Virus record (IMG/VR): IMGVR_UViG_2728369554_000019 | Strand: one strand, 5' to 3' | Source: a virus | Taxonomy: Duplodnaviria > Heunggongvirae > Uroviricota > Caudoviricetes | Length of the DNA: 7,959 nt | Shown: piece by piece, positions 1 to 7,959 of the stretch | Position numbering within the stretch: the stretch's first letter is position 1 | Layout of the letters: each line of letters opens with the position of its first letter | The notes under the pieces: generated by a model | Seen by the model: only the letters and a program-made list of their open reading frames with translations | Databases searched by the model: none | What the model was told of the DNA's origin: nothing | Made by a program: the position numbers and the translations under genes

Positions 1-1002
1 TTACCCTCTATTGTCAAAAGGGTTCAATTCAACAGCAGCCTCTAAATGACCTGGAGCAAAATGCGCATAACGCATAGTCATTTTTATATCGCTATGCCCC
101 AGTATTTTTTGCAACACAAGAATATTTCCGCCCCGCATCATAAAATGACTGGCAAACGTGTGACGTAGCACATGAGTTAATTGCCCATCAGGAAGCTCGA
201 TCTTCGCTCTCTTAATTGCAGCGTCAAAAGCCTCATAACATGGTGAAAATAGCGCTCCTCGTTTTTTGGGAAGCATAGCCTGCAATTGAGGTGAAATCGG
301 TACAGTGCGGTTCTTCTTTCCTTTAGTTTTAACAAATGTGATTCGACCGGGCAGTACTTGAGATTGCTTTAATCCTTCTGCTTCACTCCACCGAGCACCA
401 GTCGCAAGCCCAATACGGACAACAACCCCCAAATCTTTATTCCGTGACTCATCACACGCAATCAGAAGGCGTTCAATCTCATCTACATACAGAAACGCCA
501 GTTCCTTTTCTTCCTCACGAAACTTGCGAATACCAGTCAGGGGGTTTTCACCAGACCACTCCCCAAGGCGCTTCAGTTCGGCAAAAACAGCATGTAGATA
601 TGACTGCTCGCGATTAACGGTTGCTTCACTAAGTTTTTTCTTCCCCTTGGGATTCCATTCTCCTGATAGCCTTCTTTCCCGATAAGTGGCAAACATATTT
701 TTGTCAAACTGAGAAGCAAATGGATCTCCCAGCCTGGAACAAATCGCCTCAAGTTTGACTTTGCGCTCTGCACCAGAGGACAAGGTTTTACCGTACATCT
801 CAAACCAACGAGCAATCAACTCAGAAAGACGAGGACCAGAACCATCTTGAAACTCGTCTCCAACTCTACTATTCATTAAACGGCGCTCATAAGAGAGCGC
901 CTCACTTTTTGTCGCAAACTGTTTACGAATGCGTTTTCCCGATGCCCCGTAGGGATAACATTCGCAAAGCCATTTACCTGATGGAATCTTACGAACCGAC
1001 AT
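1..1002 (-). CDS. int: Tyrosine recombinase / phage integrase, P2/186 family, complete (333 aa)
   Basis: Translation shows the P2-family N-terminus (MSVRKIPSGKWLCECYPYGASGKRIRKQFATKSEAL) and tyrosine-recombinase catalytic boxes (GARWSEA; HVLRHTFASHFMMRGGNILVLQKILGH; MTMRYAH with the catalytic Tyr). Start ATG at 1000-1002 and stop TAA at 1-3 on the minus strand. Family assignment is from memory of 186/HP1/P2 integrases, not from a search. Confidence 0.9.
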   Translation of the reverse strand: MSVRKIPSGKWLCECYPYGASGKRIRKQFATKSEALSYERRLMNSRVGDEFQDGSGPRLSELIARWFEMYGKTLSSGAERKVKLEAICSRLGDPFASQFDKNMFATYRERRLSGEWNPKGKKKLSEATVNREQSYLHAVFAELKRLGEWSGENPLTGIRKFREEEKELAFLYVDEIERLLIACDESRNKDLGVVVRIGLATGARWSEAEGLKQSQVLPGRITFVKTKGKKNRTVPISPQLQAMLPKKRGALFSPCYEAFDAAIKRAKIELPDGQLTHVLRHTFASHFMMRGGNILVLQKILGHSDIKMTMRYAHFAPGHLEAAVELNPFDNRG

Positions 1003-1007
1003 TTTAG

Positions 1008-1355
1008 TTACTTATCACATAAATCAAATGCAGCCTTAGTGACATCCCCCAGACTCTTTTTTAACCCTGGGGCGGCATCATTATCTAGCCAAAATGGATT
1101 ATTGTTATCTAACGGTAACGCACCAAATGTTTTACCTTTTATTCGAGCCAAACCTGTAAGTGCATATAACTTATTATCGTCAAAATTCATCACATAAGGA
1201 TTACCATCAAGACACTGTAATTGAACCTCATCAGTATTAAATGGCCATACCCCATTGAAACTCTCACGTTCAATAGTTTTAAAAGGCATTGCGACGGCGG
1301 AAAAAGAAAACATAGATAAAAAAGTAACTAATAGTTGAACCTTTTTTACTTTCAT
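1008..1355 (-). CDS. Small secreted/periplasmic protein of unknown function (115 aa) with N-terminal signal peptide and two Cys in the mature part
   Basis: N-terminus MKVKKVQLLVTFLSMFSFSAVA-MP has a basic n-region, hydrophobic core and AXA-like cleavage site. Cys in QCLDG and DLCDK. SD GAGGT lies about 8 nt upstream of the ATG. Stop is 5 nt before the int start, with no separate SD for int. Confidence 0.6.
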   Translation of the reverse strand: MKVKKVQLLVTFLSMFSFSAVAMPFKTIERESFNGVWPFNTDEVQLQCLDGNPYVMNFDDNKLYALTGLARIKGKTFGALPLDNNNPFWLDNDAAPGLKKSLGDVTKAAFDLCDK

Positions 1356-1384
1356 ATCATTACCTCAATTTAGCTCAAGTAAGA

Positions 1385-2035
1385 TTACAAATTAAAAAAC
1401 GCCCTAGAAATGACACCGCCTACCAAAACCCCTACGCAGATAAAGAATATTATTTCTTTTGGATAAAGTCGGATTAATTCTGAAGCACGAAGTCGGACTT
1501 CTGGTAAGGTCGAACTCTCTGTGTGGCTTGATGCCGATTGTTGCTCTAACCACGACAATGCAGACTGTAACTGAGAACGAGTAAGATCGTTTAAACGTCC
1601 TGTACCGAAATTGATATGGCAATACCGCAGAAGTTTTTGTCGAAGTCCACAGTCTTCACTGTTACGTAGTAATAAACTTACAAGAGCCTTACAGGCATCA
1701 TGATCTTTACATCGCTCAAGCATTGCATGCAGAAAACTCTCCGCTGTTTTATATTGATTTACTGTCATATCATCAATACCAGCTACACCAATCTCCGCAT
1801 GTACTTTTTGCCAAATAATAAACGCTTCAGTATTGCTAGCTTCTGCAATAGCAGCAACCAAGCTATTTAGCTCCTTACGCTGAGCCTTAAGCAAAGGGCG
1901 ATCGTCATCATCATTATTCGAAGGGATTGCGATATTGACAGTATGAGAACCATCATATCGCTCTATCTGAATATTCTTTTCGTGAAAATCACGCCCAGCA
2001 ACGCGATTGTTTGAACCGTTTGAGTTGACGGCCAT
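1385..2035 (-). CDS. Tail-anchored membrane protein of unknown function (216 aa): soluble N-terminal domain plus a single C-terminal transmembrane helix
   Basis: Strong SD (AGGGAGGTGA) immediately upstream of the ATG. The only hydrophobic segment is at the extreme C-terminus (EIIFFICVGVLVGGVISRAFF). Acidic DDDD tract near the N-terminus. No recognisable catalytic motif by eye. Confidence 0.65.
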   Translation of the reverse strand: MAVNSNGSNNRVAGRDFHEKNIQIERYDGSHTVNIAIPSNNDDDDRPLLKAQRKELNSLVAAIAEASNTEAFIIWQKVHAEIGVAGIDDMTVNQYKTAESFLHAMLERCKDHDACKALVSLLLRNSEDCGLRQKLLRYCHINFGTGRLNDLTRSQLQSALSWLEQQSASSHTESSTLPEVRLRASELIRLYPKEIIFFICVGVLVGGVISRAFFNL

Positions 2036-2050
2036 GTCACCTCCCTACTA

Positions 2051-2455
2051 TCACCTACCCTTAGTTTCGTTATAGTCACGACCAGCGATACGGTTATTAC
2101 CACCAGAAATATTTAACTCACGTCCTGATGGCTGAGTTTCCTTTTCACTGATCGCACCTTTTAAAGCCCCAATCACCGCGTTTTTCACATCTAACGAAGC
2201 TGCTCGAAAGCGAGTAATCAACTCCTGCTCATCATCGTTATAAGTTTCAGGTGAGTGAATTCCCAACACAACATACTGAACATCAAGGCCAAAACGAGAC
2301 AGCGCTGCCAAATACGCAGCATCAGGAAAGCTATCTCCTTTCTCATATCTAAGCTGAGTTAGCTTTTTGACTCCACCAATGTCGCTCATGGCAACTTGAC
2401 TAAGTCCCAATCTTTCCCTTTCCTCACGCAACCGCTGACCAATATCATTTTTCAT
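2051..2455 (-). CDS. HTH XRE/Cro-CI-family transcriptional regulator, putative prophage immunity repressor (134 aa)
   Basis: N-terminal helix-turn-helix signature (IGQRLREERERLGLSQVAMSDIGGVKKLTQLRYEKG). It is the first gene of the leftward operon ending in int and is adjacent to the switch region, which is the position of C/cI in P2/186-type phages. Confidence 0.8.
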   Translation of the reverse strand: MKNDIGQRLREERERLGLSQVAMSDIGGVKKLTQLRYEKGDSFPDAAYLAALSRFGLDVQYVVLGIHSPETYNDDEQELITRFRAASLDVKNAVIGALKGAISEKETQPSGRELNISGGNNRIAGRDYNETKGR

Positions 2456-2530
2456 ACAAAAACCTTGACAGGTATCTTTTTTGATACCAAAATGATTTCA
2501 CGAGCTATTAGATGATCACAATATACCACT
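2456..2530. promoter_or_regulatory. Lysis/lysogeny switch region: candidate sigma70 -35 box plus 18-bp palindromic operator candidate
   Basis: TTGACA at 2465-2470 on the + strand; the downstream -10 is weak (CAAAAT-like). Perfect inverted repeat GGTATC-N6-GATACC at 2471-2488 lies in the promoter spacer. The 75-bp gap sits between oppositely oriented operons. Confidence 0.4.
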
Positions 2531-2737
2531 ATGAAACAAGTTCTTCACGATACCAGATCACGCATTCCGCGTAACACCGCCACAGGTCCAAGACTGGCAC
2601 TTCGGCTGTCCCTCGAGGAGCGAGCCGTCATTGATGAAATGGCAGCTAAAGAACAACGCTCATCCTCTAACATGGCGCGCATGATCTTCCTTCGCGGCCT
2701 AGAGCTAACCCAGAAAGAACAAAACAAATCTTCCTGA
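2531..2737 (+). CDS. Small DNA-binding protein, possibly ribbon-helix-helix (68 aa); putative early/lytic regulator
   Basis: First ORF of the rightward operon. Segment LALRLSLEERAVIDEMAAKEQRSSSNMARMIFLRGL resembles a beta-strand plus two-helix RHH pattern. No clear SD, so the start is uncertain. Confidence 0.45.
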   Translation: MKQVLHDTRSRIPRNTATGPRLALRLSLEERAVIDEMAAKEQRSSSNMARMIFLRGLELTQKEQNKSS

Positions 2738-2753
2738 TCAGGAGGCTAGTGGG

Positions 2754-2957
2754 ATGTCAGGTATAACCATCAATATCAATGTGAATGCCCCCTATGTATC
2801 CCTGCAGAAATATGCAGAGATAACAGGTATCCCTCTTAATACGTGCAAAAAGATGTTGGCTGACGGTCGAATTATTATCCGCCCCAAACGCGCCAAAATG
2901 GAAAAGCCTGAAGTAAACCTTGTGGCGATGTTAAAAGACGCTTTGGCTAACAGCTAA
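2754..2957 (+). CDS. Small HTH protein, Cox/Apl/excisionase-like (67 aa)
   Basis: SD AGGAGG 8 nt upstream of the ATG. Motif YVSLQKYAEITGIPLNTCKKMLADGRIIIRPKR matches the small HTH excisionase/regulator pattern of P2 Cox and 186 Apl (recalled from memory). Confidence 0.55.
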   Translation: MSGITININVNAPYVSLQKYAEITGIPLNTCKKMLADGRIIIRPKRAKMEKPEVNLVAMLKDALANS

Positions 2958-2978
2958 AACAATGAACAGAGCACCATC

Positions 2979-3586
2979 ATGAAAAAAAACGCTAATAATC
3001 CATACTCCAAATTTCGTAATGGCGTAGAACGCCATGTACACCACGTCGCTACCAGTGCATCACGTAGTAACAGTCGCTATAACCTGAACGAGACGCACGC
3101 AACACCGGATGGCCACGCTGTAAAACAAATCGGCGAGCATGCCTGGCTGATTGAGAAAGCTGGAATCGTGGTCCACAAATGCCTACGCAATCCGTTTACC
3201 GGAAACCGCATTTTTGCATTGAACTGCGGCGACAATCACTTCGGGCAGGATTTCACATTATACGAAGCACTTCGCACGGTTGATCGTCTGCTTCGCGGGC
3301 AAAGTTTTATTAAACAGNNNNNNNNNNNNNNNNNNNNNNNNNNNNNNNNNNNNNNNNNNNNNNNNNNNNNNNNNNNNNNNNNNNNNNNNNNNNNNNNNNN
3401 NNNNNNNNNNNNNACGCAGCTACTTACGTTTATCTGAACGGTACGCGCCTGACTGTGGAGCTTCCGTACCAGACCGTACGAGAAATCATTAGCGAAGCTG
3501 AAAAGGCACGTCAGGTTAATGGCGATGAACCCTATATCGAAATTATTTGTATGGATTCAGAAGCTGAAATTCAGAAAGCAGATTAA
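2979..3586 (+). CDS. Hypothetical early-region protein interrupted by a 96-N gap; N-terminal part 2979..3317, C-terminal part 3416..3586
   Basis: Open frame from ATG 2979 up to the N-run. After the gap a clean coding frame (AATYVYLNGTRLTVELPYQTVREIISEAEKARQVNGDEPYIEIICMDSEAEIQKAD) ends with TAA at 3584-3586. The two parts are in different frames across the N-run, so the gap length is not the true length. Confidence 0.4.
3318..3413. other. Assembly gap or masked region (96 N)
   Basis: Run of N inside an apparent coding region. Confidence 0.9.
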
Positions 3587-3597
3587 AGGGCGTTGCG

Positions 3598-3840
3598 ATG
3601 GGCAAAGAATATAAAACTCTCATTAACAAAGCACTTGAACGATTTTATTTTCGCTTAAGTGCATCAGGCGCTCATGCTGAACATGCAGCCCGTGACTCAT
3701 TGACCAGGGCAATCCGGAGTTTGTATGACGTTGCTTTTTACGCTGATGATCTGGATGCACTTAACGAACTTTCCGAGCTGATCTGTGCCGCAGAATGCGG
3801 GGAACATATTGAACCGTATAAGCTGGGGAATATTGCATGA
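3598..3840 (+). CDS. Hypothetical protein (80 aa)
   Basis: SD AAAGGG about 8 nt upstream. Stop overlaps the next start (ATGA). Non-repetitive, helical-looking composition. Confidence 0.5.
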   Translation: MGKEYKTLINKALERFYFRLSASGAHAEHAARDSLTRAIRSLYDVAFYADDLDALNELSELICAAECGEHIEPYKLGNIA

Positions 3841-3950
3841 GTATATTTATCTCATGGCTTGTTCTGATTATTTCGGTGGCCTGCGCCATTGGGATTATGC
3901 GAATTATTCATTCAGTAAAAAAGATTGAACGCTTTTTCACTGGTGAATAA
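3837..3950 (+). CDS. Small hydrophobic membrane peptide (37 aa)
   Basis: ATG at 3837 overlaps the upstream TGA (ATGA coupling). Translation MSIFISWLVLIISVACAIGIMRIIHSVKKIERFFTGE is one predicted TM helix followed by a basic tail. Missing from the supplied ORF track, presumably because it is short. Confidence 0.35.
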   Translation: MSIFISWLVLIISVACAIGIMRIIHSVKKIERFFTGE

Positions 3951-4043
3951 CGATACAAATAAAGCATCAAATTAAATAAGAAAACGTGAAAACCATCCGT
4001 ATTAACGGAGGTATTCGCACACGCAAATAACGGAGATACAAAA

Positions 4044-4365
4044 ATGCACGCAAAAGAAGAAGGTATCATCAGAGCACTGAAAGAAATNNNNNNNNNNNNN
4101 NNNNNNNNNNNNNNNNNNNNNNNNNNNNNNNNNNNNNNNNNNNNNNNNNNNNNNNNNNNNNNNNNNNNNNNNNNNNNNNNNNNNNNNNNNNNNNNNNNNN
4201 NNNNNNNNNNNNNNNNNNNNNNNNNNNNNNNNNNNNNNNNNNNNNNNNNNNNNNNNNNNNNNNNNNNNNNNNNNNNNNNNNNNAATTCTGACAAATCTCC
4301 GCCTGATAGAACGCTCTCAAGCTGTATTCATTGATGACGCGCAACGTGCCGTATTTAACGCATAG
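4044..4365 (+). CDS. Hypothetical early-region protein interrupted by a 196-N gap; N-terminal part 4044..4087, C-terminal part 4285..4365
   Basis: SD GGAG 8 nt upstream of ATG 4044 (MHAKEEGIIRALKE...). After the gap a coding-like frame (ILTNLRLIERSQAVFIDDAQRAVFNA) ends with TAG at 4363-4365. Frames do not match across the gap. Confidence 0.35.
4088..4283. other. Assembly gap or masked region (196 N)
   Basis: Run of N inside an apparent coding region. Confidence 0.9.
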
Positions 4366-4388
4366 GGTTACTGGACAAAGGGGGCGCA

Positions 4389-4592
4389 ATGGCAATTAAG
4401 CATTTTTCCGTCGTTCGCTTTACCTCCAGAGGGCGCGAATACGAGGTCGACGAACGCCTGATTACCACTATCGACAAACATCGTTCGGAAAAGGATGCAC
4501 ACCACATCTACCTCACTGACGGCACTTATTTCTGCGCCACCAACGTGGCGCGGGTGAATCTTATCCGACAAGTACAGGAGCCACGCAGATGA
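4389..4592 (+). CDS. Hypothetical protein (67 aa)
   Basis: Strong SD AAGGGGG upstream. Stop overlaps the next start (ATGA). Confidence 0.55.
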   Translation: MAIKHFSVVRFTSRGREYEVDERLITTIDKHRSEKDAHHIYLTDGTYFCATNVARVNLIRQVQEPRR

Positions 4593-4855
4593 CCATTCTG
4601 GACTACATCGCTACTCATCCGGGGTGTAGCGGCGGAGAGATCGCCGCAGCACTGAATACTCCAACCACAGCCATTAATGCTGAGTTACGCCAACTTTGGC
4701 GCGGCGGCTTAGTCATCAGAACAAACCGCAGCACAGGTGGTCGCGCTCGCAAAACTGGAGGCCAGGCTTCTTACCACGTAAACCCGATGCCGTTCGGGTG
4801 TAGCAATCCACTTACTCACATGTTTAACCAGCTACTGAAGGAAGCCAGAACATGA
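4589..4855 (+). CDS. Hypothetical protein (88 aa), possible winged-helix DNA-binding fold
   Basis: SD CAGGAG 8 nt upstream. ATGA overlap at both ends. Segment SGGEIAAALNTPTTAINAELRQLWRGGLV is HTH-like; this is a weak inference. Confidence 0.5.
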   Translation: MTILDYIATHPGCSGGEIAAALNTPTTAINAELRQLWRGGLVIRTNRSTGGRARKTGGQASYHVNPMPFGCSNPLTHMFNQLLKEART

Positions 4856-5151
4856 GCACCATCAACCACCAGAAGCTACGCGAACTGGCATTTGCCCTGC
4901 AACGAATGGCAACGCCTCAAAAATTACTGGCATTTCGCGCAATACTCTCGCCGTCTGCTGTGCTGGCACTGCTGGATCAGCTGGAGCACGCCAGAACCAC
5001 GGCTCCTGCCATTCGCCTCACGCTCCATCATGAAATCGCTGATTTCTGCGCAACGCTGGGGGCACCTGGCGAACCGGAAACGCCGGAAGCAATGCAGCAA
5101 GAGCTGCTGCAACGCATCGATAACGTTTTTGATTTTTTTCTGAACCAGTAA
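4852..5151 (+). CDS. Hypothetical protein (99 aa)
   Basis: SD GAAGGAAG upstream; translationally coupled to the previous gene. Followed by a structured noncoding region. Confidence 0.5.
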   Translation: MSTINHQKLRELAFALQRMATPQKLLAFRAILSPSAVLALLDQLEHARTTAPAIRLTLHHEIADFCATLGAPGEPETPEAMQQELLQRIDNVFDFFLNQ

Positions 5152-5273
5152 GAAACCAGAACATGCACACACAAAAAAACCGCTTGCCATGCCTCAATCG
5201 GTCAGGTTACATTTCCGCTGCACCTCATAAAACGGGTGCCGGGATTCTCAACCCGATACAGAGCAAAGCGCAT

Positions 5274-5296
5274 AACCGCGCAAGCGGTTTTTTTGT
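5274..5296 (+). terminator. Candidate rho-independent terminator
   Basis: Stem ACCGC / GCGGT (5275-5279 and 5284-5288) with GNRA tetraloop GCAA, followed by a run of eight T (5288-5295). Confidence 0.5.
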
Positions 5297-5473
5297 GCGT
5301 ACTGTATTGCCACGTCTTTTTCGCGTCAGAATTATGGCGGGGCGTACGGGGCCGACTTCGGTCGGGCCGGATTCTTTGCTCTCCGGTGTTGAGAACCCTG
5401 TACGTCTCGCCACCCCGAGATTCTCAACTCTGGATGGTGAGTTATTTCTATCACCGAGCAAAGAGGCCACACC

Positions 5474-5704
5474 ATGGCAGACCGCAAACAGCACCGCGCT
5501 ATCGCGGAGCGTCGTCACATCCAGACTGAAATCAACCACAGACTTTCCCGCGCATCACGCGTCGCGCAAATCATGCACATCAATATGCTGCATGAGCGCA
5601 GCCACGCACTATCAAACATTTATTCCGCCTCTGTTTTCAGCTATCTGGCGGATGATCTGCACGAGCTTCAACAGCTCATCCAGCAGCAAAACAAACTCCA
5701 TTAA
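5474..5704 (+). CDS. Hypothetical small basic protein (76 aa)
   Basis: SD AAGAGG about 8 nt upstream. Charged, helical-looking composition. Preferred over the overlapping 205-aa ORF 5163..5780, which runs through the terminator structures. Confidence 0.45.
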   Translation: MADRKQHRAIAERRHIQTEINHRLSRASRVAQIMHINMLHERSHALSNIYSASVFSYLADDLHELQQLIQQQNKLH

Positions 5705-5776
5705 TTCCTGTTCCGGGCCTTTCCTGCACCTTGCGGCGGGAGGCCTTCGCACATCTGTAACAAGAGGATTGCCGCA

Positions 5777-6142
5777 ATGATTCTCGCCAACGACTTTCTT
5801 GAATACCTGCTCAACACAGAGCGTGATCTTGCCGCTCGCGTACGTGATCGTTATGACATGTATCTGAAATCCCTGCCTGTACCGCAGCTCGCTGACGGAA
5901 AAATTGTTATTGATGGTCGCTACATGATTGACAGCCACGAGGGGAATTACAGGCTTTACCGCATTGAAGCCGGCACCCCGTCCGTTATTGGCATTTACCA
6001 GCGCCCATCCTCTGCGATCGTCGATGTGATTGCCGACAGCATCCGCATCACACACCACCATGCCGACACAGAAGACACTGTGCTGGAGATTCAGCGGCTG
6101 GCTACCGTTTGCCGTGACACTCTGAACGGAATGACGAAGTAA
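5777..6142 (+). CDS. Hypothetical protein (121 aa) immediately upstream of the replication gene
   Basis: SD AAGAGGA 8 nt upstream. Stop is 6 nt before the gpA-like start. A second, 5'-truncated copy lies at 6538..6858. Confidence 0.6.
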   Translation: MILANDFLEYLLNTERDLAARVRDRYDMYLKSLPVPQLADGKIVIDGRYMIDSHEGNYRLYRIEAGTPSVIGIYQRPSSAIVDVIADSIRITHHHADTEDTVLEIQRLATVCRDTLNGMTK

Positions 6143-6148
6143 ATCAGT

Positions 6149-6526
6149 ATGACGACAGAGTACATCAGGGACTGGCAACAACCGCGCCACACAGTAGGAC
6201 GTGAAGGAACGGAGATCCCCGCACCTGAATCCGCACTTTCCTCCTGGCTGGATGCCTACCGGGCAGAGAACGAACGCCGCCAGGAAATGGCTGATGCGGC
6301 GTTCTCCGCCACACCGCTGGGCAACCTGATTAATAAAAGCCTGGACGCACAGGAAAAACAGGACAAAACCATCACACTGGCCAGAGAAGCCAGAAAACAG
6401 GCACGCGGCGCGGTGGATGAAGCCATGGCCTCGCTGCGCCTGCTGCCATCCTATCTGCGCGATCCGCTTATTCGCCACCTCTCCTTCCTGCGCAAAAAAC
6501 AGGAAGCCGATCGCCGGAAAGGCAAA
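6149..6526 (+). CDS. N-terminal 126 codons of a gpA-like replication initiation gene (copy 1), cut off by the 10-N gap
   Basis: Translation MTTEYIRDWQQPRH...RKKQEADRRKGK is near-identical to the first 126 aa of the CDS at 6865..7959. The frame runs into the N-run at 6527. Confidence 0.5.
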
Positions 6527-6536
6527 NNNNNNNNNN
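6527..6536. other. 10-N scaffold gap at the junction of two about 95% identical direct repeat copies
   Basis: Run of 10 N. Sequence 5822..6526 is repeated at 6538..7242. Confidence 0.9.
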
Positions 6537-6537
6537 A

Positions 6538-6858
6538 CGTGATCTTGCCGCTCGCGTGCGTGATCGTTATGACATGTACCTGAAATCCCTGCCTGTACCG
6601 CAGCTCGCTGACGGAAAGATTGTTATTGATGGTCGCTACATGATTGACAGCCACGAGGGAAATTACAGGCTTTACCGCATTGAAGGTGGCACCCCGTCCG
6701 TTATTGGCATTTACCAGCGCCCATCCTCTGCAATCGTCGATGTGATTGCCGACAGCATCCGCATCACACATCGCCATGCCGACACAGAAGACACCGTGCT
6801 GGAAATTCAGCGGCTGGCTACAGTCTGCCGCGACACCCTGAATGGCATGACGAAGTAA
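6538..6858 (+). CDS. Second copy of the 121-aa hypothetical gene, 5'-truncated at the gap (lacks the first ~15 codons)
   Basis: In-frame translation from 6538 (RDLAARVRDRYDMYLKSLPVPQ...GMTK) matches residues 16-121 of the 5777..6142 product with a few substitutions. The M at 6556 in the ORF track is an internal GTG. Confidence 0.5.
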   Translation, partial: RDLAARVRDRYDMYLKSLPVPQLADGKIVIDGRYMIDSHEGNYRLYRIEGGTPSVIGIYQRPSSAIVDVIADSIRITHRHADTEDTVLEIQRLATVCRDTLNGMTK

Positions 6859-6864
6859 ATCACT

Positions 6865-7959
6865 ATGACGGCAGAGTACATCAGGGACTGGCAACAACCG
6901 CGCCACGCAGTGGGGCGTGAAGGAACGGGGATCCCCGCTCCTGAATCCGCGCTTTCCTCCTGGCTGGATGCCTACCGGGTAGAGAACGAGCGCCGCCAGG
7001 AAATGGCTGATGCGGCGTTCTCCGCCACGCCGCTGGGCAACCTGATTAATAAAAACCTGGACGCACAGGAAAAACAGGACAAAACCATCACACTGGCAGG
7101 AGACGCCAGAAAACAGGCACGCGGCGCGGTGGATGAAGCCATGGCCTCGCTGCGCCTGCTGCCGTCCTATCTGCGCGATCCGCTTATTCGCCACCTCTCC
7201 TTCCTGCGCAAAAAACAGGAAGCCGATCGCCGGAAAGGCAAAAAGAGCTGGCAGGCGGAACGCTATGCACGCGGAACCCTGCGCAAAATATTCGAACGTC
7301 TGGATCGCACTGACGGACACTGGCTGACACCGGGTTATCGCTCCCTTGCCGGACGCGAACGCCTGGACGATTTGCTTTACCTGCCGCAGCTCAACAAACA
7401 CCAGATACAGACGCTGGCCACCATGACGGCGGCGATGTTCAGCAGCACCTTCGAAAAACTCTGCGATGGATTTGGCGCGACCGATGGCGAACTGACCATG
7501 GATGTAACGCTGAAGGCGTATCAGATGCTGGCCCGCATGGCGTTACACCTGCACATCATGCCTCCACATTATGACGCACTGACAACAGATAAAGACCGGA
7601 GGAACGAACCGGACACGGAGCTGCTGCCGGGCGCAATCCTTCGCCTGACCTGTGCTGAATGGTGGAAACGCAAACTGTGGCTGTTACGTTGCGAGTGGAG
7701 AGAAGAACAACTCCGCGCCGCCTGTCTGGTTTCCAGAAAAACATCGCCCTATCTGAGCCAGGACGCATTAAGCGAGTTTCGCGCACAGCGCGAGAAAACA
7801 CGCGATTTCCTGAAAAGTTTCATGCTGGAAAACGAAGACGGGTTCACGATTGATCTCGAGACAGTGTATTACGCGGGAGTAAGTAACCCGGTTCACCGTA
7901 AGGCAGAAATGATGGCCACCATGAAGGGGCTGGAACTTCTGGCCGAAGCCCGTGGCGAC
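6865..7959 (+). CDS. Replication initiation protein, P2/186 gpA-like (rolling-circle replication endonuclease); 5' complete, 3' partial, runs off the window
   Basis: ATG at 6865; 365 codons to the window end with no stop. Position as the last large gene of the early operon and sequence character recall gpA (Phage_GPA family), but this is from memory, not a search. Absent from the ORF track, presumably because it has no in-window stop. Confidence 0.6.
   Translation, partial: MTAEYIRDWQQPRHAVGREGTGIPAPESALSSWLDAYRVENERRQEMADAAFSATPLGNLINKNLDAQEKQDKTITLAGDARKQARGAVDEAMASLRLLPSYLRDPLIRHLSFLRKKQEADRRKGKKSWQAERYARGTLRKIFERLDRTDGHWLTPGYRSLAGRERLDDLLYLPQLNKHQIQTLATMTAAMFSSTFEKLCDGFGATDGELTMDVTLKAYQMLARMALHLHIMPPHYDALTTDKDRRNEPDTELLPGAILRLTCAEWWKRKLWLLRCEWREEQLRAACLVSRKTSPYLSQDALSEFRAQREKTRDFLKSFMLENEDGFTIDLETVYYAGVSNPVHRKAEMMATMKGLELLAEARGD

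Follow-up and report, generated by a model that had tools for sequence, protein, structure and literature searches.

The question raised by this locus is whether a segment that appears twice in direct orientation in a viral record was duplicated in the phage or only in the assembly. The window, by which we mean the whole stretch of 7,959 nt analysed here from IMG/VR record IMGVR_UViG_2728369554_000019, is made up of contigs separated by runs of N, and the apparent repeat surrounds one of these, a 10-N placeholder gap at 6527-6536 between contig C (4284-6526) and contig D. In direct comparison, 5822-6526 and 6538-7242 align over 705 bases at an offset of 716 throughout, with 33 mismatches (95.3% identity) and no indels, which confirms the direct duplication of about 95% identity described in the sequence-only reading, and a repeat search of the window also seeds this pair. 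Chance alone would not produce a match of 705 nt at 95% identity. The base at 6537 (A) is likewise part of copy 2 and differs from its counterpart at 5821 (G), giving a unit of 706 nt with 34 differences. Copy 1 occupies 5821-6526 on the plus strand, forming the allele-specific 3' end of contig C, and copy 2 occupies 6537-7242 on the same strand as an alternative 706-nt allele at the 5' end of contig D, from which it continues unbroken into the remainder of gpA. As had been noted, the N run falls at the repeat junction, with copy 1 ending before it and copy 2 starting after it. The earlier estimate of about 90 identical nucleotides before the gap was too high: the copy-1 tail that is identical to its copy-2 counterpart measures 78 nt (6449-6526).

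The repeat holds parts of two genes, in agreement with the content first read from the letters (most of a 121-aa gene plus 126 codons of a gpA-like gene), namely codons 16-121 of the 121-aa ORF, a 6-nt spacer, and codons 1-126 of gpA. The 121-aa ORF itself (5777-6142, plus strand) has its start codon in a shared stretch just upstream of the repeat and takes its body from the copy-1 allele. Its product had no Pfam match; public assemblies contain the exact protein in 76 blocks, and at all six distinct places listed the gene lies directly upstream of a 940-aa gpA. The gpA fragment of copy 1 (6149-6526, plus strand) comprises the first 126 codons and is cut by the contig end, not by mutation. The intact gpA-like gene (6865-7959, plus strand), which runs off the end of the window, matches PF05840 (Phage_GPA) at residues 179-365 (E = 5.6e-60; 203.5 bits against a cut-off of 31.4), and closed genomes annotate gpA as a 'replication endonuclease' of 940 aa. 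Since the 126-aa fragment stops before the domain starts at residue 179, it contains no part of it. Exact protein look-up of a 144-aa ORF spanning the N run returned no record, and look-up of a 100-aa GTG ORF of copy 2 gave two unrelated assemblies (L009, a Logan contig, and L010, an ENA metagenome scaffold).

Taken at face value, two copies at 95% identity with the first one truncated look like an old duplication in place that has since diverged by 5%, leaving the copy-1 gpA as a decaying pseudogene. We compared the window with annotated closed loci (L001, from the closed genome of E. coli O145 RM11626, and L002) and with assembly loci (L003-L008), and copy 1 (5822-6526) proved identical at 705 of 705 positions to L003, L004, L005, L007 and L008. 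In the L003-type P2-like prophage this allele is single-copy and is followed by an intact 940-aa replication gene, and the copy-1 gpA fragment translates to the exact N-terminus of gpA in L003. Drift in place cannot give an exact match to a functional allele found elsewhere. Copy 1 was also searched for indels, stops and frameshifts, and none was found; within the 121-aa ORF the copies differ by 15 synonymous and 2 non-synonymous substitutions, a ratio that would be expected of two functional alleles, while the differences in the N-terminal part of gpA (8 synonymous, 7 non-synonymous) give a weaker signal of constraint. No closed genome is intermediate. The reading of the locus as a real diverged repeat with a truncated gpA pseudogene is therefore disfavoured, and an old in-place duplication is effectively refuted by the identity to L003-type prophages; we regard its probability as negligible.

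The divergence between the copies instead fits the allele or strain heterogeneity that the sequence-only reading had suspected, copy 1 being the allele, at 100% identity, of another P2-like prophage. L003-type prophages have a different integrase (38% amino acid identity) and a different repressor (22%), as well as a Cox protein and a Band_7 gene. In L003 the integrase is adjacent to pdxB/usg, and the integrase, Cox and Band_7 genes fall within 1859-7330. Copy 2 is 99.4% identical to L001 and represents the common allele, with at least 99% identity in 760 complete-genome records, the best match of copy 1 in the same collection being 97.6%. A copy-1-specific 59-mer had no match in the viral, genome or metagenome contig collections. 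Over its whole length contig D matches a natural single-copy gene of NZ_CP097001.1 at 99.6% identity. Downstream of the repeat, the rest of the 5' half of gpA (7243-7959, plus strand) is common to both haplotypes and written once, and contig D differs there from L003 at only two sites, 7319 and 7470. Upstream of the repeat lie 146 nt (5675-5820, plus strand) that are identical in both prophage types.

Comparison with closed genomes of related prophages, a check that had been proposed for this locus, gave one copy. On L001, contig C (4284-6526) maps to 5913-8155 and contig D (6538-7959) maps to 7451-8872, giving an overlap of 705 nt; the distance across the placeholder gap in a closed genome is thus -705 nt and not +10. 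The whole window spans 7369-7372 nt in the 25 best complete genomes, which is the single-copy length (3317+137+673+285+2243+1422-705 = 7372). Related phage records have one place each (14 of 14), and each of the loci L001-L008 has one 121-aa gene followed by one gpA, which is 940 aa long wherever the locus holds the whole gene (the L001 gpA runs off the fetched stretch). About 110 complete genomes have two or three places for the repeat, and the single-copy state is accordingly a statement about the inspected relatives; for NZ_CP026723.1, there was no second copy within 7 kb on either side of the match.

These comparisons also bear on the possibility of a real tandem. A partial duplication could arise if a resident P2-like prophage recombined unequally with a different P2-like phage, either co-resident or superinfecting, so that a position inside gpA of one became joined to a position ahead of the 121-aa gene in the other. 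The product would be a gpA fragment of at least 126 codons placed before a complete 121-aa gene and gpA, the junction being concealed by the N run. In favour of it, each copy is a good natural allele, and the scaffolder did place contig D after contig C. The other two gaps of the window are underestimated by 41 and 89 nt, and a junction of 80-100 nt could likewise have been written as 10 N. The tandem arrangement is nevertheless absent from the 25 best complete genomes, the 14 phage records and the inspected loci L001-L008, and a search for the literal junction (the end of copy 1, 0-30 nt, and the start of copy 2) found none in the viral, metagenome or genome collections, a result that covers gaps of at most 30 nt. 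If true, a real tandem would mean a free-standing N-terminal gpA fragment, at least 126 aa long and without the endonuclease domain, arising where two heteroimmune P2-like phages recombined, and such a fragment might disturb or modulate how the phage, or a relative resident alongside it, replicates.

Further evidence comes from where the contigs of this record end. Besides the placeholder, the window has a 96-N gap at 3318-3413, which corresponds to 137 nt in L001, and a 196-N gap at 4088-4283, for which the missing sequence is 285 nt long and identical in both prophage types; relative to L001 these runs are too short by 41 and 89 nt, respectively. Three independent contig ends (3317, 4087 and 6526) each lie exactly 78 nt past the last base that distinguishes the two types, contig A at 3317 ending 78 nt past the last base at which it differs from the L003 type. 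We built an in-silico de Bruijn graph at k = 79 of two prophage haplotypes, H1 and H2, with k derived from these three ends and the assembler likewise deduced from the sequence alone. The model predicts five of six contig ends exactly: 3317, 4087, 4284, 6526 (on the H2 arm) and 6537. The sixth, the start of contig B at 3414, falls 3 nt short of the first distinguishing base, beside a 9-nt indel. Around the repeat the modelled nodes are a shared node at 5753-5820, an H2-only node at 5821-6526 and an H1-only node at 6537-7242, and a 285-nt shared node between the H1-only nodes 3964-4087 and 4284-5752 makes up the entire second gap, as a stretch collapsed into one node would. No single rule relates the lengths of the N runs to the sequence that they replace (96 N stands for 137 nt, 196 N stands for 285 nt). 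The model gives the first shared node a length of 96 nt, as long as the first N run; since the second gap breaks this rule, we take the agreement to be a probable coincidence.

The nodes begin on the first allele-specific base and end k-1 bases after the last, a convention that we take to be that of Velvet. SPAdes-type assembly works with k = 77 and writes artificial gaps of 10 N. An origin of this type fits less well: contig D begins with the first specific base and not k bases earlier, and the tail is 78 nt, not 77. We also considered the N runs as masks or uncovered positions in a reference-guided consensus and rejected this, since their lengths of 96 and 196 differ from the 137 and 285 nt of the closed genome and such a consensus would carry no duplication.

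The boundaries do not by themselves separate an artefact from a tandem, since by the same reasoning a real tandem of two alleles would give breaks, and thus node boundaries, at identical points of a k = 79 graph. What they do show is that the second haplotype extends beyond the 705-nt segment. The breaks at 3317, 4087 and 4284 indicate that an L003-like haplotype was present among the reads for 3 kb or more, and this full-length second haplotype explains the extra arm without any rearrangement. A real tandem would add a rare event on top of heterogeneity that an artefact also needs, and we consider it improbable. The pattern also bears on other errors of post-assembly joining, in which two assemblies or isolates were merged, or contigs were set end to end during gap-filling or reference-guided ordering. 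Pipelines that join contigs commonly insert a fixed spacer of 10 N, and the outcome would be the same, overlapping contigs with a short spacer of fixed length between them. With three ends exactly 78 nt past a distinguishing base and contigs that start on distinguishing bases, the contigs look like graph nodes of one joint assembly; independently assembled contigs would not show this pattern, and a joining error of that kind appears more doubtful still than a real tandem.

We therefore favour, with high confidence, an assembly or scaffolding artefact in which two alleles of one prophage stretch were placed in series. The suspected misjoin of overlapping contigs is upheld by the 705-nt overlap seen on closed genomes, by the one copy in each of the relatives inspected, by the exact match of copy 1 to another prophage's allele and by the coincidence of contig ends with graph nodes. 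The assembler behaviour that we infer behind it would run as follows. The read set would have held two haplotypes of the early region of a P2-like (P88-like, Xuanwuvirus-type) E. coli prophage, identical over some stretches and about 5% apart over others, and in a de Bruijn graph at k = 79 the identical stretches would collapse to shared nodes. In 5821-6448 the 34 differences are never more than 60 nt apart, so that this region would form a single bubble with two 706-nt arms, copy 2 being arm I and copy 1 arm II. The assembler would have continued the upstream contig across the 146 shared nucleotides and on into the copy-1 arm, which belongs to the second prophage type, and halted its extension k-1 = 78 nt beyond the last difference. 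The copy-2 arm would begin at its first allele-specific base and run on into the rest of gpA. With read pairs linking both arms to one neighbourhood, the scaffolder may then have serialised them and inserted its minimum gap of 10 N, while the real molecule would have a single copy of the stretch at this position. In keeping with this, removal of 5821-6536 gives back an intact 121-aa ORF followed by gpA.

False duplications arising from divergent haplotypes were reportedly described by Ko and colleagues in 2022. In its details the locus also resembles an unpopped bubble of a Velvet-style de Bruijn assembly, with arms that reach from the first allele-specific base to k-1 past the last, shared stretches that turn into N runs, and a minimum N spacer where the estimated distance is not positive; the lengths of the N runs and the start of contig B are incompletely explained by such a bubble. 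Errors in which divergent haplotype contigs with mate links to one region are placed adjacently have been termed 'duplicated overlapping contigs' (Kelley and Salzberg 2010; PMC2864568). As in that class, two adjacent contigs of one scaffold are separated by a gap (contig C ending at 6526, 10 N, contig D starting at 6537), the alignment at 95.3% identity reaches both contig ends, starting with the first base of D (6537/6538) and stopping at the last base of C (6526), and independent finished assemblies of the locus are single-copy. The cause in that class, reads from two versions of a sequence with mate links to a common neighbourhood, would apply here too. The published cases are diploid vertebrate genomes, whereas the versions here would be related prophages in one bacterial genome or in two strains.

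Where the second haplotype came from is a separate matter, and we place a second prophage in the same genome at slightly better than an even chance and a second strain in the sample at slightly short of one. When sites of the window were scored by their L001 (type 1) or L003 (type 2) state, contig C had the L001 state across 4284-5674, except for six L003-state sites in 4345-5237 and two that match neither; it had zero type-distinguishing sites in 5675-5841 and the L003 state at 35 of 35 distinguishing sites in 5842-6448. Contig C thus changes from type 1 to type 2 across 5675-5820. In both NZ_CP065615.1 and NZ_CP018323.1 the copy-2 allele has a type-2 integrase about 4 kb away, and given this natural mosaicism of P2-like prophages the 'types' are only local; contig C could be a genuine recombinant haplotype and not a chimera.

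In conclusion, the apparent duplication is very probably not biological. Its practical weight falls on users of the record, in which the scaffold would overstate the locus by 716 nt, introduce two false features, a truncated gpA 'pseudogene' and an incomplete copy of the 121-aa gene, and mix alleles of two prophages, with the change of haplotype in contig C at 5675-5820; dropping either 5821-6536 or 6527-7242 would correct it. More generally, an assembly artefact of this kind may be diagnosable without the reads: contig ends that fall a constant k-1 past the bases distinguishing a known relative can expose the underlying graph and, here, even k. For the phage itself the biological weight is small. 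The window is 98-99% identical to phage P88, vB_EcoM-569R5 and E. coli O145 prophages, and it has the early region of P88-like and P2-like prophages (Peduoviridae, Xuanwuvirus), with, in this order, integrase, repressor, early genes, the 121-aa ORF and a gpA whose PF05840 match is that of their rolling-circle replication endonuclease. Once the artefactual 716 nt are removed it would not differ from them, and the prophage would be an ordinary member of this group.

The window's three runs of N (3318-3413, 96 N; 4088-4283, 196 N; 6527-6536, 10 N) indicate a scaffold of four contigs, A (1-3317), B (3414-4087), C (4284-6526) and D (6537-7959). The sequence-only reading had placed a repeat around the last run, and direct comparison bears this out: 5822-6526 (copy 1) and 6538-7242 (copy 2) lie at a constant offset of 716 and differ at 33 of 705 bases (95.3% identity), with substitutions but no indels. 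The identical tail ahead of the 10-N gap, earlier put at about 90 nt, measures 78 nt (6449-6526). Because the first base of contig D (A at 6537) mismatches its counterpart (G at 5821) and the tail is identical up to 6526, the repeat spans contig D's first base to contig C's last, which makes each unit 706 nt long instead of 705 nt. Judged by sequence comparison, the duplication is very probably an artefact of assembly and scaffolding and not a real genomic feature.

On the closed genome of E. coli O145 RM11626 (L001), contigs A to D fall at 1501-4817, 4955-5627, 5913-8155 and 7451-8872, so that C and D overlap by 705 nt on a finished genome. Comparison with closed related prophages, proposed when the repeat was first noticed, thus finds one copy per locus: L001 and a second annotated closed locus (L002) each carry a single 121-aa gene followed by a single replication endonuclease gene (2823 nt in L002, running past the fetched stretch in L001). 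In the best 25 complete genomes the window spans 7369-7372 nt, the single-copy length, and all 14 phage records match in one place per record. Deleting 5821-6536 leaves an intact 121-aa ORF, followed by gpA. The first two N runs were also considered as masks, a possibility rejected because L001 has 137 and 285 bases, respectively, in their place.

Copy 1 has its own identity elsewhere. Its 121-aa protein occurs exactly in 76 blocks of public assemblies; its context was read from the 24 longest contigs of these, where the gene is single-copy and directly 5' of a 940-aa gpA in all six distinct places listed. Its DNA matches that of five such loci (L003, L004, L005, L007 and L008) at 705 of 705 positions, and we assign these loci to a P2-like prophage different from the window's. 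This L003-type prophage adjoins pdxB/usg, encodes a Cox protein, and has an integrase and a repressor 38% and 22% identical to those of the window; its integrase-repressor-cox module is present in 342 complete E. coli genomes. It also differs from the window by an insert of about 1.1 kb at ~5169, just 5' of isrK (L003 6300-7330), which has the look of moron-type cargo and encodes a Band_7 (SPFH) protein of 276 aa besides a protein of 67 aa. Among complete-genome records, copy 2 represents the common allele, with 760 of them at 99% identity or higher, and copy 1 reaches 97.6% at best. Two observations exclude an old duplication that diverged in place: a functional allele elsewhere matches copy 1 in full, and synonymous differences outnumber non-synonymous ones 15:2 in the 121-aa ORF. 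The full match also counts against the earlier fallback of a real diverged tandem repeat with a gpA pseudogene, and the misjoin of overlapping contigs with allele heterogeneity that the sequence-only reading preferred is supported by the 705-nt overlap, the single-copy relatives and the occurrence of copy 1 elsewhere.

The contig ends follow a common rule. Contig A ends at 3317, 78 nt past 3239, the last site at which it differs from the L003 type; contig B ends at 4087, 78 nt past the distinguishing site 4009; contig C ends at 6526, 78 nt past 6448, the last difference between the copies; and contigs C (4284) and D (6537) start on distinguishing bases. We modeled two haplotypes at k = 79, H1 being the window with copy 2 and gaps filled from L001, and H2 being L003. 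In this model, H1-only nodes extend up to 3317 and over 3964-4087 and 4284-5752, a 285-nt shared node takes up all of the second gap (4088-4283), further shared nodes lie at 5753-5820 and from 7243 onward, and the H1 arm (6537-7242) is paired with an H2 arm mapping to window 5821-6526. Five of the six contig ends are predicted exactly, and the start of contig B (3414) is off by 3 nt, beside a 9-nt indel. As differences inside the repeat are spaced at most 60 nt apart, each arm is one unbroken node at k = 79; thus the two "copies" would be both arms of one bubble, written in series. The breaks at 3317 and 4087/4284 show that a second haplotype was in the reads across at least 3 kb, beyond the repeated 705 nt. 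The second gap coincides exactly with the stretch identical between prophage types, which makes it a repeat node that collapsed; for the first gap, the 96 N equal the predicted shared node length (96), probably by chance, and contig B then begins 32-41 nt late. The node convention of the contigs would fit that of Velvet.

Mechanistically, the assembler may have left the 706-nt bubble unmerged and the upstream contig may have extended via a 146-nt shared stretch into one arm; read pairs tying both arms to the same flanks would then have led the scaffolder to set the arms in series and insert its minimum gap of 10 N. The C/D join is the same class of error as the "duplicated overlapping contigs" that divergent haplotypes cause (Kelley and Salzberg 2010, PMC2864568). 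A recent tandem duplication, made by recombination between two phages, would be expected to give the same graph boundaries, but it requires an extra rare event, is lacking from every closed genome, phage and assembly locus inspected, and is in our view highly improbable. The literal copy 1/copy 2 junction, with gaps of up to 30 nt covered, is absent from three large collections (viral, metagenome and genome).

Painting at positions where L001 (type 1) and L003 (type 2) differ assigns contig C the L001 state over 4284-5674, save six L003-state sites (4345-5237) and two matching neither; 5675-5841 is without distinguishing sites, and 5842-6448 is type 2 at 35 of 35 sites. Contig C could be a genuine recombinant haplotype, since such phages are naturally mosaic. 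Over 3414-3626 contig B matches the L003 type without a difference, and private and L001-type states follow; either the haplotype switches here as well, across a shared node of 135 nt, or the mosaic is a natural one. Contig D is type 1 at most sites over 6558-7164 and type 2 from 7305 onward, with two private differences from L003 (7319, 7470), so that its gpA switches from L001-like to L003-like between 7164 and 7305. We attribute this switch (7165-7304) to natural recombination and not to assembly, because complete genomes carry the same combination: the entire contig is 99.6% identical to the natural single-copy gene in NZ_CP097001.1.

Gene content and matches assign the window to a P2-like prophage (phage P88/Xuanwuvirus type), of which it is the early region; the entire window is 98.4-98.8% identical to prophages of complete E. 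coli genomes, and contig D 98.1-98.7% identical to phages vB_EcoM-569R5, P88 and P884B11. It encodes an integrase (1-1002, minus strand), a helix-turn-helix repressor (2051-2455, minus strand), DUF4754 and MarR-like early genes, a 121-aa ORF of no family (5777-6142) and the gpA replication endonuclease (from 6865, PF05840). Rfam matches place isrK at 5220-5294 (63 bits) and a C4 antisense RNA at 5330-5417 (78.5 bits), a short way upstream of a 76-aa ORF (5474-5704) of the Pfam "Derepression" family (PF25738, E = 2.9e-08). Taken together (5163-5704), they resemble a P1/P7 immI-type module of antisense RNA and antirepressor, here carried by a P2-like prophage. An inverted repeat of 21 nt (5167-5187/5280-5300, 95% complementary) brackets isrK, and a 205-aa ORF (5163-5780) reported by some gene callers (L010, an unrelated ENA metagenome scaffold) overlaps both RNAs and is probably not a real gene.

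The second haplotype may stem either from another prophage of the same genome or from a second strain in the sample. Co-residence of both prophages in one genome is plausible, because their integrases and repressors differ, and about 110 of the 1158 complete genomes having a match show two or three places. An unrelated Logan contig (L009; 9990, 14893) shows a rearrangement at the position corresponding to window 5829/5830, and L010 has its own 10-N gap (1746-1755) about 25 nt upstream of the 5821 equivalent. Breakpoints of both mosaicism and assembly seem to recur at the 5' edge of the 121-aa gene in P2-like prophages.
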